The notes under the pieces are model-generated. The model made no database searches. It saw only the letters and a program-made list of their open reading frames with translations, and had not been told where the DNA came from. A program made the position numbers and the translations under genes. Positions 40,022-58,742 of a stretch of DNA of 64,000 nucleotides are shown here, piece by piece; position 1 is the stretch's first letter; each line of letters begins with the position of its first letter. Origin of the DNA: Escherichia coli (GTDB lineage: Bacteria > Pseudomonadota > Gammaproteobacteria > Enterobacterales > Enterobacteriaceae); NCBI RefSeq assembly GCF_003334335.1, contig NZ_QOWQ01000013.1. The stretch is one strand, 5' to 3'.

Positions 40022-40933
40022 ATGGATGACTGTGGTGCGGTTTTGCATAATATTGAAACCAAATGGCTTTATGATTTTCTGACCCTGGAAAAATGCCGCA
40101 ACTTTTCCCAGGCGGCAGTCAGTCGCAACGTCTCGCAACCGGCATTCAGCCGCCGCATCCGTGCACTGGAACAGGCGATTGGCGTTGAATTGTTTAACCG
40201 CCAGGTGACGCCGCTGCAACTCTCGGAACAAGGGAAAATCTTCCATTCGCAGATCCGCCATCTGTTGCAACAGTTAGAAAGCAACCTTGCAGAACTCCGT
40301 GGCGGCAGCGATTACGCGCAACGTAAAATCAAGATAGCCGCTGCACACTCTCTTTCCCTCGGTCTGTTACCGTCCATTATCAGCCAGATGCCGCCGCTCT
40401 TTACCTGGGCGATTGAAGCCATTGATGTTGATGAAGCGGTCGATAAACTGCGTGAAGGGCAAAGTGACTGTATTTTTTCCTTTCACGACGAAGATTTGCT
40501 GGAAGCGCCGTTTGACCACATTCGCTTATTTGAATCTCAATTGTTCCCCGTCTGCGCAAGTGACGAACACGGAGAAGCACTGTTTACCCTCGCGCAGCCA
40601 CACTTTCCGTTACTGAATTACAGCCGCAACTCCTACATGGGGCGATTGATTAATCGCACCCTGACGCGCCACAGTGAGTTAAGTTTCAGCACCTTTTTTG
40701 TCTCTTCGATGAGCGAGCTTTTAAAGCAGGTTGCCCTCGACGGCTGTGGGATTGCCTGGCTGCCGGAGTACGCCATCCAACAAGAAATTCGCAGCGGGCA
40801 GCTCGTTGTACTGAATCGGGAAGAACTGGTGATCCCGATTCAGGCCTACGCATACCGGATGAATACCCGCATGAATCCAGTTGCCGAACGCTTCTGGCGT
40901 GAACTGCGCGAGCTGGAGATTGTGCTTAGCTGA
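40022..40933 (+). CDS. hypT: LysR-family transcriptional regulator HypT (YjiE)
   Basis: 303-aa ORF; N-terminal LysR-type HTH. Confidence 0.9.
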
Positions 40934-41318
40934 CATTCTCCAGCGTCGCACTACGCCAACCGCCATTATCCCAGACCAGATCAAACGTTAGCGGTTCATC
41001 GTCGTGGTACAGCATTATCTCAAGGCTGATCGCCAGCGTGTGGCTGTACGCTTCTTTCAAATTGACCTGCAACGCCGCAATCCGTGGCTCATGAAATAAC
41101 AGTGCAGAACGTAGCTGACGGCAATACCAGCTCTGAAGATGTTTGTCGCTCTGGTTATGCACTTGCCACTCGGGCATGCCTGAAACAAGTAATGACGGTA
41201 ATGCCGAATGAGGAGAATTAAAAAGAGTGAGGAGATCGCTGCATACCGATTTACGCAGCAATGACGTTTTATTGCCTGAAATTTCAGGTAAAACAGCCTG
41301 AAGTGATTGGCGCATCAT
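40926..41318 (-). CDS. iraD: Anti-adaptor protein IraD (RpoS stabiliser)
   Basis: ORF 40926..41327; convergent with hypT and overlapping it by 8 bp; start chosen at [15 protein letters not shown]. Confidence 0.85.
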
Positions 41319-41989
41319 TTTGCGCACTCCTGACGTTTAGCAACATATGCGGCTTGCCCTGAACACCGGGCACCACTGTATTGATGCTCATTTTCCATAG
41401 CCATTCCCTTTTGTTCATTACATCCATGTCAGTCTGAGACAGGCCTGAATCCTGTCAGCAAAGTATAAAACCTTACTTGCCTATGAATATCTACTGACTT
41501 TTCAGGAAAAAAGTCATGATTTGATAAAAATCATCAAACTCAAAAAAAAACCGCTAGTATATTCTGAATATTCCGAATAGTTACGTAGATGAAAATACTT
41601 GTCACCGCCGCTACTTAATTCCGGTGGGAAATTATTTATTTCCGCATAATCAGCCATGCATTATTTGAAACAATTAGTTTGTAAATAATATAAATTGATA
41701 ACATATCAAATACATCAAAAATACCATTCACAGGCATTATTAATATAGACATCAATATAGCAACATCAAATTCCAATTAGTAATAAGATATGCTTTTAAA
41801 TTGCATGCAAATAATTTTAAATGAGCGTTTTTTGATACTTTAGAGTGTTTCCCACCCTTTAATATCACCGTGTAGAGTTGATATCACTACAACAGAAACA
41901 TGCATGTCATTTGTTTACTTCTCTTTTTACTACAGAAAAATTTATCTATTTTTCTAAACATCAGTGAAATACTCATAAAGGTAACTATT

Positions 41990-42820
41990 ATGTCTATGCC
42001 ATTAAGCAATGCCCTTCAGAGTCAAATTATTACAGATGATCACTTCCTTCATCATCCAAAAGTCGACAATAAGTTAACATGTGAATATGAATATGCACGC
42101 ATGGATACGGAAAATATCTATCTTCTGCCTCTTACTCGTGGCAATAACCATAATTACGATGGAAAAAGCGTTGTCGAAATTAGAAAACTTGATATTAGTA
42201 AAGAGTCCTGGCCATTTAATTATGTGACAGAAACATGCAGAGAATCCGATGGTATTACAACAACAGGACGTATGCTCTATCGAAACTTGAAAATCACCTC
42301 AGCTTTAGACGAAATATATGGTGGTATATGTAAAAAGGCGCATGCTGCCACAGAGTTAGCAGAAGGATTACAACTAAATTTATTTATGAAGAGCCCTTTC
42401 GATCCTGTTGAGGACTATACAGTTCATGAAATAACATTAGGCCCTGGTTGCAATGTTCCTGGTTATGCCGGAACCACAATAGGATATATTTCAACCCTTC
42501 CAGCTTCTCAGGCAAAAAGATGGACCAATGAGCAGCCAAGGATTGATATCTATATTGATCAGATAATGACGGTAACAGGGGTAGCAAATTCTTCCGGATT
42601 CGCCCTTGCCGCATTACTTAATGCTAATATTGGGATGGGAAATGACCCAATAATTGGTATAGAAGCCTATCCAGGTACCGCGGAGATCCATGCAAAAATG
42701 GGATATAAAGTTATCCCCGGTGATGAAGATGCAAAACTCAAACGTATGACTCTGCAACCGTCATCTCTTCCAGAGCTATTTGAATTAAAAAATGGTGAAT
42801 GGAATTATATTGGTAAATAA
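41990..42820 (+). CDS. yjiC: Uncharacterised protein YjiC
   Basis: ORF 41900..42820; internal start MSMPLSNALQSQ at 41990 gives 276 aa; AT-rich gene. Confidence 0.8.
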   Translation: MSMPLSNALQSQIITDDHFLHHPKVDNKLTCEYEYARMDTENIYLLPLTRGNNHNYDGKSVVEIRKLDISKESWPFNYVTETCRESDGITTTGRMLYRNLKITSALDEIYGGICKKAHAATELAEGLQLNLFMKSPFDPVEDYTVHEITLGPGCNVPGYAGTTIGYISTLPASQAKRWTNEQPRIDIYIDQIMTVTGVANSSGFALAALLNANIGMGNDPIIGIEAYPGTAEIHAKMGYKVIPGDEDAKLKRMTLQPSSLPELFELKNGEWNYIGK

Positions 42821-42960
42821 CCACTGAGAAGAATGAGTACTAATATTCAGGTTATACAGATATTTAAACAATACCCTGTAATTTACAAAGTAATACTCAT
42901 TGCGACTTCTTAATTTAAGAAAGCGCAAGGAACGTTTACCCTTGCGCTTATCATAATAAG

Positions 42961-43734
42961 TCAGGCGTCGACTTTATCCAGCGGCCATGAATCAAACAGA
43001 TAGCCGTCAAAATAAATATCGTCAACGTTCGAGAATTCCAGCAAACGTTGTTTAACGTTTTCCAGATGCTGCCACATTGCCAGCTTCGCCGCTCGGGCAT
43101 CTTTTTTGATTAACGCGGCGAGGATCTGTTTGTGATCGCCCAACCACTCTTTGCGATACAGGCTGTCATCCAGATGGCTGTGCAACTGGATCCACATCGG
43201 ATTGTTTTCCCGCCACTGCCAGGACTGACGGAATAGCTCCACCAGCATGCTGTTATGCGTCGCTTCGGCAATGGCGAGATGAAACTGCATGTCACCACTT
43301 TCGCTGCTGCCCGGTGCGCTGGAAGCCAGTTCACGCTCTTCCAGTTGTAATGCCTGGCGCATTTTGACGATATCTTCGCGGGTAGCCTGCAGGGCGGCAA
43401 ATTCCGCGATGTTACTTTCCAGTAACTGACGCGCCTGTAACAGCTCAAAAGGACCCGCATCATTGCAGACGTTGGCATCCGGACCGTCTGTGTTCTGGCT
43501 GCCTGAGCTATCAAGAACATAGATACCGGCACCCCGACGCACTTCCACCAGCCCTTTGATCTCCAGCATGATCAGCGCTTCACGTACCACCGTCCGCGTG
43601 ACATCAAGCATTTCTGCAATTTCACGCTCCGGCGGCAGCCGTTCGCCAGGATTGTACGGCGTCTTTATGATCAGATCGCGGATCATCGCCCCGACTTCCT
43701 GGTAAGGTCTTTGCGCAGAGGTGGCAGATTTCAT
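42961..43734 (-). CDS. uxuR: GntR/FadR-family repressor UxuR
   Basis: 257-aa ORF with GntR HTH, adjacent to uxuBA. Confidence 0.92.
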   Translation of the reverse strand: MKSATSAQRPYQEVGAMIRDLIIKTPYNPGERLPPEREIAEMLDVTRTVVREALIMLEIKGLVEVRRGAGIYVLDSSGSQNTDGPDANVCNDAGPFELLQARQLLESNIAEFAALQATREDIVKMRQALQLEERELASSAPGSSESGDMQFHLAIAEATHNSMLVELFRQSWQWRENNPMWIQLHSHLDDSLYRKEWLGDHKQILAALIKKDARAAKLAMWQHLENVKQRLLEFSNVDDIYFDGYLFDSWPLDKVDA

Positions 43735-53973: not shown

Positions 53974-54513
53974 TTACTGATAGGTTAAAGAGAACCAGGC
54001 CTGGGCATTGGCGATGCCGCCAGTAACCCGACGCCCGGTAGCACGATATTTGGCGATGAAATGTAGCGAAGTAGAGCCTGAGTAAAGCCGTTTCCAGTTT
54101 GCTGGAGGACGATTAATCGGTACGAGGTTTCCTTCATCATCAAACAACGCTACGCCAATATTGGTGGCTATCCCTGGCCCCTCTCCCACGGAAAGCACAT
54201 CCGGATTTTTACCATCCGCGACACCGTGAAACGCCACACCCACACGTTCACTCACCACCGTGCTACATTCCCGTAAATGAATAACAAAAGGCACCGGTGC
54301 GCTATCTTCCCCTACCGCATGAAACCGGTTACTGCTGATTTGCCCCATATTGACCGTCATTTGTTTATCACCGGCTTCAATCCGGCAAGTTTCCGCAATA
54401 ATGACGCCCTGAAATTGCATATTTCCGCCGGGCAGCGTGGTGTTCCATTTATTTCCGGCCAGAGCAAACATTGGCAGCAACGACGCTAATAGAAATAATC
54501 TCTTCCTTTTCAT
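53974..54513 (-). CDS. fimI: Type 1 fimbrial protein FimI
   Basis: ORF 53974..54645; start [19 protein letters not shown] at 54513 gives 179 aa. Confidence 0.88.
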
Positions 54514-54577
54514 CGTTATTTTTATCGCACAAGGGTGGGCATCCCTGCCCGTAATGACGTCCCTGAACCTGGGTAGG

Positions 54578-55132
54578 TTATTGATACTGAACCTTGAAGG
54601 TCGCATCCGCATTAGCAGCACCCGGGGTTGCCTCGCCGATTGCATAATAACGCGCCTGGAACGGAATGGTGTTGGTACCGTTATTCAGGGTTGTTTGTGC
54701 ACTAAATGTCGCACCGTCCAGCGTCAGCTCATTTCCTGTTCTGTCCAGTATCTGCACACCAACATTTGTTGCGCTACCCGCAGCTGAACTCTGCAGAGCC
54801 AGTACTTTAGGATGAGCACTGTCAATCGCAGTCCCCAAGAAGGCAACAGCGGCTTTTGTGGCAACACTGGTATCGCAATCATTCAGCTGAATGTTAAAAC
54901 CGACAGCAGAGCTGGTTGCTCCAGTCTGCTTCAGACTAGCGGTACGAACCTGGCCCAACTGAACGGTTTGATCAACAGAGCCTGCATCAACTGCGCAAGC
55001 GGCGTTAACAACTTCCCCTTTAAAGTGAACGGTCCCACCATTTACCGTCGTGGGTGTAGTTTCAGCCAGAGCCGCTGTAGAACTCAGGGACAGAGCCGAC
55101 AGAACAACAATTGCCAGAGTTTTAATTTTCAT
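54578..55132 (-). CDS. fimA: Type 1 fimbrial major subunit FimA
   Basis: 184-aa pilin [26 protein letters not shown]... Confidence 0.95.
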
Positions 55133-55251
55133 ACTGCTTTCCTTTCAAAAAACTATTTCTAAATCGACATGGGCAGTCGTTCCGTACACTTTGTTTTGTC
55201 AACGAGTTTGACTGCCAACACTGCACAGTTTCCCCCCAAAAGATGAAACAT

Positions 55252-55566
55252 TTGGGGCCAAAACTGTCCATATCATAAATAAGTTACGTATTTTTTCTCA
55301 AGCATAAAAATATTATAAAACGACAAAAAGCATCTAACTGTTTGATATATAAATCATTTCTCTTGTAAATTAATTTCACATCACCTCCGCTAAATGTAAA
55401 GCTAACGTTTCTGTGTCTCGAAGCAACTTCCTCATTCTTCTCTCCAAAAACCACCTCATGCAATATAAAAATCTATAAATAAAGATAACAATAGAATATC
55501 AAGCCAACAAATAAACTGAAAAAGTTTGTGCGCGATGCTTTCCTCTATGAGTCAAAATGGCCCCAA
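55252..55566. promoter_or_regulatory. fimS: fimS invertible phase-variation switch carrying the fimA promoter; appears to be in the ON orientation
   Basis: 9-bp inverted repeats ttggggcca (55252-55260) and tggccccaa (55558-55566); minus-strand TTGAGA-N18-TATGAT promoter-like hexamers near the fimA-proximal repeat, pointing toward fimA. Confidence 0.8.
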
Positions 55567-55613
55567 TTGTCTTGTATTTATTTGTTTTTTACCTTTACTA
55601 TCAATAAGTTAAA

Positions 55614-56210
55614 TTAAACCTCTTCTCTTTTTAATTTTTCGTTTATGAGATTATTTCTTTCCCATAATCCGGCAAAACGAGCAGCATTACTGGCGGTATA
55701 ACGCACAGTATGGCGAATATTTCGATGCCCGAGATAATCCTGAATTAAACGGGTATCTGCACCACGCTCCGCCAGTTCATAACCGCAAGCATGCCTTAAC
55801 ATATGAGGATGAGTCTGCGTTACGGTTCCAGCTTCAATACCGGCATCGCGAATAATGCGATAGGCCTGCTGGCGAGAAAGCCGACTCCCGCGGCGAGAAA
55901 TAAATATAGCGTCGGTCCGGTCAGCGCCTTTCCAGTTAGCACGTTCCTGGGTCCAGCGTTCCACGGCTTCACGCTCATCAAAACGTAACGGGTGAACGGT
56001 AGAAAATCCGTTCTTCAGTCGGCGAATATTTATTCGACCTTCATTAAGGTCAAGGTCCTGATAATGCAGATCAAGCAGTTCACTAATACGCATCCCATGC
56101 CGATATGCCAACAGAATAAGACAATAATCTCTGGCTCCCGTTGCCCCGTAACAAACCGCCTGCATCATGGCCTGAACTTCTTTACCGGTAAGATAACGAC
56201 GTTTACTCAC
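55614..56210 (-). CDS. fimE: Tyrosine recombinase FimE (switch ON-to-OFF)
   Basis: 198-aa ORF with tyrosine-recombinase C-terminal motifs (HMLRHACGY...LGHRNIRHTVRYT). Confidence 0.93.
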   Translation of the reverse strand: MSKRRYLTGKEVQAMMQAVCYGATGARDYCLILLAYRHGMRISELLDLHYQDLDLNEGRINIRRLKNGFSTVHPLRFDEREAVERWTQERANWKGADRTDAIFISRRGSRLSRQQAYRIIRDAGIEAGTVTQTHPHMLRHACGYELAERGADTRLIQDYLGHRNIRHTVRYTASNAARFAGLWERNNLINEKLKREEV

Positions 56211-56686
56211 AATAGTAGTACTCCTGACTGAGATATATTTGAATGAATACCTATAGGAAACCTCAATCGGTCAAAATTAGCCCAATAGATAAAAAGATAA
56301 CCACACACGAAGTGATGTGGCTATCAGTCAATTACATTAAATATCATACAAAAATAAAATATCACTGATGTGATAACATCTATTTTCATTGATTTGATTC
56401 AATATAACAATAGATTGCAGTGGATTAACTTCCAGTTGCTTAAAAAATAAAGAAAAAATGTGAAAACAGATGAATTTAAGTGATGTGTAAATTTATGAAT
56501 GATTTTGTTTATTTATTTTGAAGAACATAAACCATTGTATTTTGTATGGATGTGGTTAACTTAATGTTTATTATTATAATTAAGAATCACACTTACAATA
56601 ACATCAATTAATAAATGGTTAATCATTTTTGATATATCGTAAGAATAATGTAGTTTTTAACACCATCCCTGGTATCTCAACTATCT

Positions 56687-57289
56687 CTATAAAACAGCGT
56701 GACGCTGTCGTCCTCTGGCCCTATCCCAGATGCCGTAAAAACGCCCTGCATTGCTGGCGGTATACCAGACAGTATGACGAATATTGCGATGCCCAAGATA
56801 ATCCTGGATAAGTCGCGTATCTATTCCCATATTCGCCAAAGCAAAACCACACGAATGGCGTAACATGTGCGGATGAATCTCCAGTGACAACCCGGCATTA
56901 CCACCGGAAGTCGAGATAATATGGTAAAACTGTTGCCGAGAAAGCGGATTCCCCTTACGCGATAAAAATACCCATTCGCTCTCAGCATGCGGGTACGAAG
57001 TACGGATACTCAACCAGTTTTTTAAAGCCTGAACTTCTTTGTTCAATAGCGGGTGCGTTGTTGAAAAGCCTTTTTTTAATCGATGGATATAGATACACTT
57101 TGCCTTAAGATCAATATCCGAAATCCTCAATCGACAAATTTCACTCGCCCGGAAACCATGAATAAAACAAAGCAAAGTCAGACAATAATTACGTGCTGCA
57201 TGAGGCCCGGTATTTGCTGCTTTAAGGAGTGATTCGATTTCACTATGGGTCAGGAAGTTCCTTTTTTTGTTATCAGCCTTATTCTTCAT
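56687..57289 (-). CDS. fimB: Tyrosine recombinase FimB (bidirectional switching)
   Basis: 200-aa FimE paralogue with HMLRHSCGF...LGHRNIRHTVWYT. Confidence 0.93.
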   Translation of the reverse strand: MKNKADNKKRNFLTHSEIESLLKAANTGPHAARNYCLTLLCFIHGFRASEICRLRISDIDLKAKCIYIHRLKKGFSTTHPLLNKEVQALKNWLSIRTSYPHAESEWVFLSRKGNPLSRQQFYHIISTSGGNAGLSLEIHPHMLRHSCGFALANMGIDTRLIQDYLGHRNIRHTVWYTASNAGRFYGIWDRARGRQRHAVL

Positions 57290-58302
57290 CGTTTTCCCTT
57301 ATAATTACAGACGCGCACTAGCTGTGCTGGGTTAGCAATAATCCAACATTTTAATCCTGATTATGTTTATAAAAGCGAACGTTTGCTTAATAACTAACGT
57401 AAGTGGACCAGTTCTTCTGAGTGAACTTAAATGGAGTAGCGATAGTTACTTATAATAACTTTGCCATACAAACGCCATGCTCTTGCATGCTATGTACCTT
57501 TATATATTTATAAATCTGATACGAATCGAATAATAACCCTCATCATTAATGCAACTAATCTTATCTATATATCATGTGATATGTTCTGTAACAAGTAAAA
57601 TCAACATAAAAAATTCAGCAAAATTTAATATTCGTTCAACTAGCCGTCTCACATATGACATTATTAGTCAACTGCATTTGCCACAAAATGGCTATTTCAT
57701 GGAACGCAGTAATTTCTTAGTGGCTATTATCATGCTAATTCTTAGATCCCTAGCGATTATTCCTGCCTGGTTCGTCAGCTTAGGCCATGAGATTGTTACA
57801 TTCCCTTTTATCCTGGAGATATGGGGGAACGCAGGCGACGCTTTTTCATCTACATCCGTTGGTAACTATGGCTTTGGTCACTACGACTTAAACCTTCCTC
57901 AATCACAGCTATTCGCCGGGCGATACGGCAAACAAACTAAGTGAAACATCATCCTGAAAACACCAACATCAACAAGCCTCTCCAGATCGACATCAGGAGT
58001 GACCAGTTACAAGCCACAAACCAAGAAACATATTTCATGATGAGAATTATACTCAGCCTGATGGCGGGTAAACACTTATTTTCACCAAGCTCACTGAGTT
58101 AGCTTGCAAAGCTTTCTTTGTTTAGATTCTTAATAAATTATTTACAAAACAGATTGTTAAAAGAAAACCTTTAGTTTTTGAAGACCAATGCAAGTGTTCG
58201 TCTGGCTTCACATGGCATCTGCTTCTTAGGAAAAGATCGACATATTTTGTGACACGAATTGCAAATCTGGTTTTGTTGTATGGATTGCGTGATTTTTGAT
58301 CT

Positions 58303-58322
58303 GGTATAACAGGTATAAAGGT
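58303..58322. promoter_or_regulatory. NanR operator-like GGTATA repeats in the nanC promoter region
   Basis: ggtataacaggtataaaggt: two exact GGTATA hexamers and a third degenerate copy. Confidence 0.55.
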
Positions 58323-58742
58323 GCACCACGATAGTCAATGAGACTGGGCATCTCGTAATCTATGGCAAACATCACTTCAGTTCTTTCTCATCGGGTGATG
58401 AAAACGCACTTCAGTCTGAAAGGAATATGAAAATGAGATCAACAGACACTCTATTTTATGACTCTGGGTAAAATGGATTGAGTAAGCGATATAGCTTACG
58501 AAAATTCAAATCAATTAAACATCAGCAGAGATTTTATACTCAGGTATTTAATCTGGCCCTCTGTTTATTTAAATAATGTGGAAAGAGATTTTTCACAGGA
58601 GATATTATACAAAAAATATAAAATACAGCTACCGGTTGCCAAAGACACTATAAGCCTGGCAAAAAAATATTACACAACATAAATGCTAATTGTTTATGCG
58701 GGCTTTGTATTGCTTTCTGTATCCTACAAATGAGTGAAATTT

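Follow-up and report, generated by a model that had tools for sequence, protein, structure and literature searches.

IraD is an anti-adaptor that stabilizes RpoS, the master stress sigma factor, and the DNA upstream of its gene therefore decides when Escherichia coli turns on the general stress response after DNA damage or starvation. The transcription starts of iraD were reportedly mapped by Merrikh in 2009. They are located at positions -417 (P1) and -137 (P2) relative to the start codon (bioRxiv 10.1101/2021.05.20.444958; PMC5574718), in a 672-bp intergenic region that Sass et al. termed "unusually large" in their preprint (bioRxiv 10.1101/2021.05.20.444958). According to published work, P2 is active in all growth phases and P1 is induced in late log phase, and both promoters are reported to respond to ppGpp and to replication stress imposed by AZT; the AZT response of both is described as independent of LexA (bioRxiv 10.1101/2021.05.20.444958). 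Upon AZT treatment, ytiC was reported as the most induced transcript of the genome (260-fold), and values of 33-fold, 18-fold, 14-fold, and 11-fold were given for ytiD, idlP, iraD, and yjiC, respectively (Sass and Lovett 2024, PMC11228462).

The leader of iraD was dissected by Park et al. (2017, PMC5574718), who described the promoters P1 and P2, three leader ORFs (ORF23, ORF47, and ORF27), all of which are translated, four CsrA sites, and a structure that sequesters the Shine-Dalgarno (SD) sequence. Transcripts from both promoters carry idlP (ORF27), and those from P1 have an extra leader of 280 nt with two more small ORFs, ytiC and ytiD, which are translated although they can be dispensed with. 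Both were translated from reporter fusions, and mutation of the ORF23 and ORF47 start codons left iraD expression unchanged (PMC5574718). CsrA represses the translation of ORF27 and the half-life of the mRNA is shortened, and because the idlP stop overlaps the iraD start, iraD is repressed as well (PMC5574718). In the published mechanism, the ribosome-binding site of iraD is locked in a hairpin, such that iraD translation needs ribosomes arriving via idlP, and CsrA on the GGA sites around the idlP ribosome-binding site blocks idlP translation, turns iraD off, and destabilizes the mRNA. The locus is the founding example of this CsrA/coupled-uORF mechanism, for which a GGA on the SD sequence of the uORF, a uORF stop on the downstream start, and a downstream SD sequence in a hairpin are characteristic.

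Several further regulators have been connected with iraD. DnaA-ATP is reported to repress the gene, partly via a box, TTTTCCATA, at -81, on the basis of mutational and EMSA evidence (Sass et al. preprint, bioRxiv 10.1101/2021.05.20.444958); a DnaA ChIP-seq study reports no binding at iraD (PMC11317965). DnaA control of iraD is thus reported but disputed. Control by SspA is described as complex (bioRxiv 10.1101/2021.05.20.444958), and a HusR (YnfL) site, CAGAATATACTAGCGG, is listed for idlP-iraD by genomic SELEX (PMC12844172); SspA and HusR are thereby reported to act or bind at the iraD region as well. Inhibition of iraD expression by H-NS has been reported as well (Battesti 2012, via PMC6064147). 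Panyukov & Ozoline (2013) include the yjiC/iraD region among their 78 "promoter islands", associate it with foreign genes, and give it the mark "K", i.e., H-NS-bound in two ChIP data sets, those of Kahramanoglou and Oshima (PMC3661553).

The locus in the window

The DNA analyzed here, referred to as the window, is a stretch of 64,000 nucleotides from E. coli. Its ORF list and the RefSeq annotation of a 99.8%-identical E. coli genome give the gene order iadA, hypT, iraD (minus strand), yjiC (plus strand), uxuR, and uxuB. The plus-strand gene hypT converges with iraD, and the 3' ends of the two share 8 nt (40926-40933) with overlapping stop regions. RefSeq annotation of near-identical genomes places the yjiC start at the ATG at 41990 and the iraD start at the ATG at 41318, not at the GTG at 41327. 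An initial annotation made from the sequence had given the gap as 41328-41989; its location between iraD and yjiC holds, its iraD-side edge does not, and the intergenic region extends from 41319 to 41989, with a length of 671 bp here as compared to 672 bp in K-12.

The same annotation had described the interval as very AT-rich with A-tracts, and both statements are borne out by the numbers. The GC content of 41328-41989 amounts to 32.3% vs. 48.8% for the window, which is in the lowest 1.7% of all segments of 662 bp, and eight A/T tracts of at least 5 nt are present vs. 3.8 expected from shuffles (2.6% of the shuffles reach eight). AT-richness is uneven: the iraD-proximal 138 nt, corresponding to the P2 leader, have 48.6% GC, and low GC content sets in near 41460 and persists through yjiC (38.7% GC) to about 42960. 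In 41480-41989, a GC content of 28% vs. 49% for the window is far below background, as in horizontally acquired AT-rich DNA. Two further parts of the window, 26000-28500 and 54500-58500, also fall below 36% GC in 662-bp segments; their GC content is comparable or lower and they may be further AT-rich islands.

The interval was matched with 95-100% identity in 4904 of 5426 complete E. coli genomes, where idlP, ytiD, and ytiC (or a "hypothetical protein" in the place of ytiC) are annotated under the match. In K-12 MG1655, these genes are b4722, b4721, and b4720, respectively, and the upstream region of iraD (ytiC-ytiD-idlP-iraD; K-12 4556321-4556992) has the same neighbors, yjiC and iraD, and the same length within 1 nt. 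Alignment of the intergenic regions revealed five substitutions and one 1-nt indel. When position -n relative to the iraD start was converted to 41318 + n in the window, all published regulatory sequence elements were found at the expected offsets (Table 1). K-12 and the window are identical in the hexamers of P1 and P2, in the idlP frame with its stop overlapping the iraD start, in all four CsrA GGA motifs, in the DnaA box, and in the HusR site. The differences comprise a SNP at 41751 in the P1 spacer, a single residue exchanged in YtiC and another in YtiD, and the loss of 1 nt in the window shortly before the yjiC start, and none of them is located within mapped regulatory elements. Function was carried over from K-12 through this near-identity of sequence. 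We regard it as highly probable that the interval is the E. coli iraD regulatory region, arranged back-to-back with yjiC, with its published control elements and a composite origin. The feature is real and already known, and it is among the better-characterized regulatory regions of E. coli.

Table 1. Positions of genes, promoters, and regulatory elements of the iraD-yjiC region in the window (offsets refer to the iraD start)
Feature	Position	Strand	Basis and remarks
iraD coding sequence	40926..41318	-	130 aa; RefSeq annotation of 99.8%-identical genome and K-12; ORF list
Predicted SD-sequestering hairpin	41300..41330	-	Minimum-energy fold of P2 leader
idlP (ORF27)	41315..41398	-	27-codon iraD leader peptide; RefSeq; function PMC5574718
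Putative DnaA box TTTTCCATA ("box -81")	41391..41399 (-81 to -73)	+	Exact motif; overlaps idlP start codon
CsrA BS4 (sequence match)	GGA 41394-96	-	-78
CsrA BS3 (sequence match)	GGA 41405-07	-	-89; overlaps idlP SD sequence
CsrA BS2 (sequence match)	GGA 41423-25	-	-107
CsrA BS1 (sequence match)	GGA 41450-52	-	-134
Promoter P2	41455..41490	-	Start 41455 (-137, literature); putative -10 TATACT 41462-41467 (read from sequence); -35 match weak
ytiD (ORF47)	41514..41657	-	47 codons; P1-specific leader; RefSeq; PMC5574718
HusR (YnfL) gSELEX site CAGAATATACTAGCGG	41551..41566 (-248 to -233)	-	Exact match; inside 3' part of ytiD
ytiC	41636..41737	-	33 codons as annotated in K-12; K-12 annotation and alignment; fusion end-points PMC5574718
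Low-GC segment of long allele only, ~1.3 kb	41651..42960		DNA downstream of uxuR, yjiC, yjiC-side DNA, P1, ytiC; boundaries approximate
Promoter P1	41735..41769	-	Start 41735 (-417, literature); putative -10 TATATT 41742-41747 and -35 TTGATG 41764-41769 (consensus scan)
yjiC-proximal part	41770..41989		About 27% GC; DNA upstream of P1, yjiC promoter and 5' UTR
yjiC	41990..42820	+	DUF2686 family, 276 aa; RefSeq; 38.7% GC; divergent from iraD, part of low-GC segment

Promoters and the promoter island

A consensus scan revealed a sigma-70-like sequence, TTGATG-16-TATATT, upstream of the P1 start, and TATATT and the TATACT assigned to P2 are each positioned 7 nt upstream of the respective published start. 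We infer the -10 and -35 elements of both promoters from their placement relative to these starts. The -10 region of P2 is kept across Escherichia, and alignment showed that the P1 -10 is not kept in E. albertii. With the simple consensus scan, four promoter-like sites were counted vs. 4.6 expected from shuffles of the same region, a number to be read with the reservation that the published definition of promoter islands uses a different scoring program. The possibility of multiple promoters raised in the initial annotation is supported by the two mapped iraD starts (bioRxiv 10.1101/2021.05.20.444958; PMC5574718), its description of iraD as a regulated stress gene proved correct, and its suggestion of H-NS binding agrees with the reported inhibition of iraD (Battesti 2012 via PMC6064147) and with the H-NS-bound mark in the promoter-island list (PMC3661553). 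The high-affinity H-NS motif TCGATAAATT is represented by a single 9-of-10 match in the region (41939-41948), and no enrichment was detected window-wide.

Promoter islands are AT-rich, H-NS-bound, and located beside horizontally acquired genes. The yjiC/iraD region is listed as such and, by the independent comparison reported below, is part of a segment with a presence/absence distribution. It deviates from the class in one respect: promoter islands are described as transcriptionally almost silent, whereas P1, within the island between yjiC and iraD, is regulated and productive and supplies transcripts of a conserved stress gene.

The translated leader

Reading from 41398 to 41315, the idlP frame ends with a UGA stop that overlaps the iraD AUG (AAAUGAUG), by which the translation of the two is coupled. 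The positions of the candidate CsrA sites, assigned here by sequence match, agree with the published CsrA footprints at -112 to -103, -90 to -84, and -78/-77 (PMC5574718). In the predicted fold, the hairpin pairs the SD sequence GGAGU with ACUUC in codons 5-6 of iraD and leaves the AUG in the loop. The folding energy of the P2 leader overall is no better than that of shuffled sequences (z = 0.10), and the support for the hairpin thus comes from the published structure mapping and not from energy statistics. No difference from the idlP-iraD mechanism of Park et al. (2017) became apparent.

The 27-codon idlP frame and the stop/start overlap are intact in every Escherichia allele examined, the GGA motifs at -107 and -89 are conserved genus-wide among these alleles, and a block of 29 nt around the SD sequence and start of iraD is invariant in six Escherichia lineages. 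As judged from these alignments, the idlP-CsrA arrangement is common to every iraD allele examined from Escherichia, and the divergent short allele described below is no exception. BS1 and the DnaA box are less conserved, and the middle of the IdlP peptide varies freely among alleles, a variability that fits a function of the translation process and not of its product.

Park's "ORF23" is the 3' part of ytiC and starts with the ATG at 41704; by our count it has 22 codons, not 23. Through the SNP at 41751, where the window has T and K-12 has G, an in-frame ATG arises at 41752 and ytiC is extended to 38 codons in this strain. As a consequence, a 38-aa "hypothetical protein" takes the place of ytiC in the pipeline annotation of the closest relatives. 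The annotated ytiC ATG (41735-41737; -419 to -417; K-12 4556574-4556576) coincides with the P1 start at -417. P1 transcripts therefore either do not contain that AUG, in which case the translated ORF would be "ORF23" from 41704, or have it at their very 5' end, by which ytiC would become leaderless.

ORF length is not informative: an ATG ORF of at least 47 codons occurs in 35% of shuffles of the region, and the lengths of the small ORFs are not distinguishable from chance by sequence alone. Both ytiC and ytiD are intact in a 7%-divergent E. coli. The codon changes between this strain and the window are one synonymous and six non-synonymous for ytiD, and two and three, respectively, for ytiC. 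Counterparts of either ORF were not found in E. albertii despite the shared locus, and no NCBIfam family exists for IdlP, YtiD, YtiC, or YjiC. The initial annotation had called the region untranslated and had seen no convincing ORF in it. The former statement must be abandoned, as most of the region is transcribed iraD leader, and idlP, ytiD, and ytiC are annotated and all translated (Park et al. 2017, PMC5574718). The latter is justified statistically, given the frequency of 47-codon ORFs in shuffles, but fails in view of three annotated minus-strand genes with experimentally shown translation.

Search for hidden RNAs and structures

A hidden regulatory RNA had also been raised as a possibility for regions of this kind, and no free-standing one was found. 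At a permissive threshold, the search of 40500-43200 against Rfam returned only a eukaryotic snoRNA model at chance level (20.8 bits vs. a threshold of 50, E = 0.66), and no intrinsic terminator, i.e., no GC-rich hairpin followed by a U-run, was detected on either strand of 41200-42100. The 280-nt segment between P1 and P2 (41456-41735) folds with -74.1 kcal/mol vs. -52.1 kcal/mol for shuffled sequences (z = -5.2). We did not accept this value as a sign of strand-specific RNA structure, since the complementary strand folds nearly as well (z = -4.5). That both strands fold well points to inverted repeats at the DNA level as the origin of the signal, which singles out no RNA. Apart from one 20-nt palindrome (41560-41579), the repeat search recovered just weak repeats of short length. 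The palindrome adjoins the HusR site, and a further hairpin is predicted just past the ytiD stop (about 41497-41520).

Two iraD alleles in Escherichia

In a scan of contigs from species-representative genomes, IraD relatives were retrieved from Escherichia only, with the exception of one 605-bp contig recorded under Bacillus coahuilensis. This contig (NZ_ABFU01000118.1, strain m4-4) encodes an IraD 98% identical to that of E. coli and has 98-99% DNA identity to the window over the leader, iraD, and the end of hypT. Most likely, it represents E. coli contamination of the B. coahuilensis assembly.

The general picture within E. coli is that of two alleles. Among the 5426 complete genomes, 4904 have the long allele present in the window and 492 (9%) a short one with only 413 bp, and the two do not cross-match at megablast sensitivity. 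The short allele lacks the low-GC segment of about 1.3 kb and has approximately 80 bp of unrelated sequence in its place; fine alignment set the boundaries of the segment near 41650 on the iraD side and at the uxuR stop on the other. The comparison drew on two short-allele loci (L011 and L012) and four further loci (L006 and L008-L010). The flanking genes uxuR and hypT of short-allele E. coli are 96-97% identical to those in the window, the short-allele iraD shares only about 80% identity with that of the majority of E. coli, and its intergenic region together with iraD has 94-97% identity to E. whittamii and Escherichia sp. E1V33. Four lineages without yjiC, namely E. whittamii, Escherichia sp. 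E1V33, and two records labeled E. coli (about 78% IraD identity), have uxuR only 407-417 bp upstream of iraD, and in these, BLAST alignment with the window is confined to the 270-280 nt closest to iraD. In E. albertii, yjiC is present (72% identity) and the gap is long, its distal part being very diverged. The low-GC segment is thus subject to a presence/absence polymorphism, as 492 E. coli genomes and four Escherichia lineages lack it.

In the short allele, the idlP ORF is intact (MEYEHQPSGVRQPGQDTDATKRQECAK) and accompanied by an SD sequence and CsrA GGA sites (L011, 2522-2605; L012, 2849-2932). In every short-allele genome listed, idlP is unannotated.

Sequence comparison thus leads us to infer that the module of P2, idlP, and CsrA sites is ancestral to Escherichia and that P1, ytiC, the yjiC-side DNA, and yjiC belong to a low-GC accessory segment. 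Such a composite origin would explain why the intergenic region is unusually long and AT-rich. Gain, loss, and introgression are all compatible with the present data as histories of the two alleles.

Possible contributions of the accessory segment

A tentative reading, to which we give less than even weight, is that the low-GC accessory segment supplied the stress-inducible promoter P1 and ytiC to an ancestral iraD, that an H-NS-bound promoter island was thereby co-opted as a working promoter, and that the 9% of E. coli with the short allele control IraD via P2 alone. If this were true, short-allele E. coli, whose allele is shared with cryptic-clade Escherichia, would constitute a natural regulatory polymorphism in the general stress response, and the short allele would set RpoS stability after DNA damage or at stationary-phase entry without P1. 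A smaller side possibility concerns the P1 transcripts, which, with their start at the annotated AUG, may represent a leaderless ytiC mRNA or a separate damage-induced RNA. The same DNA could also be regarded as a xenogeneic, H-NS-silenced spacer that came with yjiC, i.e., as a promoter island in which P1, ytiC, and ytiD are by-products of composition without a selected role. We consider this doubtful. In line with it are the patchy distribution of the segment, the listing of the region in a class with little or no transcriptional output (PMC3661553), ORFs of a size expected by chance, the ratio of one synonymous to six non-synonymous changes in ytiD, the failure of E. albertii to keep ytiC, ytiD, and the P1 -10, and the unchanged iraD expression upon loss of ytiC or ytiD translation (PMC5574718). 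The properties of P1, which is mapped, regulated, and AZT-inducible and drives the late-log rise of iraD (bioRxiv 10.1101/2021.05.20.444958), speak against it, as does the ytiC RNA, the induction of which by AZT is the strongest in the genome (PMC11228462); moreover, it is silent on the conserved, functional proximal third with P2, idlP, and the CsrA sites.

Two other explanations assign a role of their own to the products of the P1-specific leader, and we judge both to be improbable. An independent regulatory RNA, either a DNA-damage-induced small RNA from the ytiC transcript or the P1-P2 leader acting as an attenuator or riboswitch-like element, would be in keeping with the folding of the P1-P2 segment far beyond that of shuffles and with the steep fall of AZT induction along the leader from ytiC via ytiD to idlP. 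The former signal has no strand specificity, the Rfam match was a chance match and a terminator-like site was not found, and covariation is untestable because the segment is absent or unalignable in other species. The drop in induction to idlP and iraD is accounted for by constitutive P2, which raises the baseline downstream of -137, an argument that does not cover the drop from ytiC to ytiD. Marginally less probable still is that the products of ytiC and/or ytiD function as micro-proteins in their own right, induced together with IraD by replication stress; of these, the hydrophobic YtiC could be a small membrane protein. Translation of both from reporter fusions (PMC5574718), their strong induction by AZT (PMC11228462), and their intactness in the 7%-divergent E. 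coli would suit such a function; purifying selection was not seen in the comparison with that strain (synonymous to non-synonymous changes of 1:6 for ytiD and 2:3 for ytiC), homologous ORFs are absent from the shared locus in E. albertii, neither protein has an NCBIfam family, the annotated ytiC start codon falls on the P1 transcription start, and the ORF lengths meet chance expectation.

Irrespective of the role of the accessory segment, the region teaches that in E. coli a long, AT-rich gap that looks "empty" can turn out to be a leader, transcribed in full and translated in part. What is new here are the two deeply diverged iraD alleles with P1 and yjiC on only one of them, a modest lead for strain differences in stress regulation.

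The yjiC-proximal DNA

The 220 bp between P1 and yjiC (41770-41989) are the least characterized stretch of the region, and the literature examined holds no description of the yjiC promoter. Amid very diverged DNA, a block of 15 nt, AAATGAGCGTTTTTT (plus strand, 41819-41833), is kept in E. albertii. It precedes the P1 start by about 85-100 bp and the yjiC ATG by about 160 bp, and may serve as a site for a regulator or belong to the yjiC promoter.

In one genome (L002), yjiC is frameshifted. Insertion of IS1 into the interval is recurrent (L003, NZ_AP023286.1, and hits H29, H32, and H59). In one genome, a pair of IS1 copies has taken the place of all DNA between uxuR and a point just upstream of idlP, with the loss of the DNA upstream of P2, of P1, and of yjiC, and other genomes carry a single IS1 insertion.
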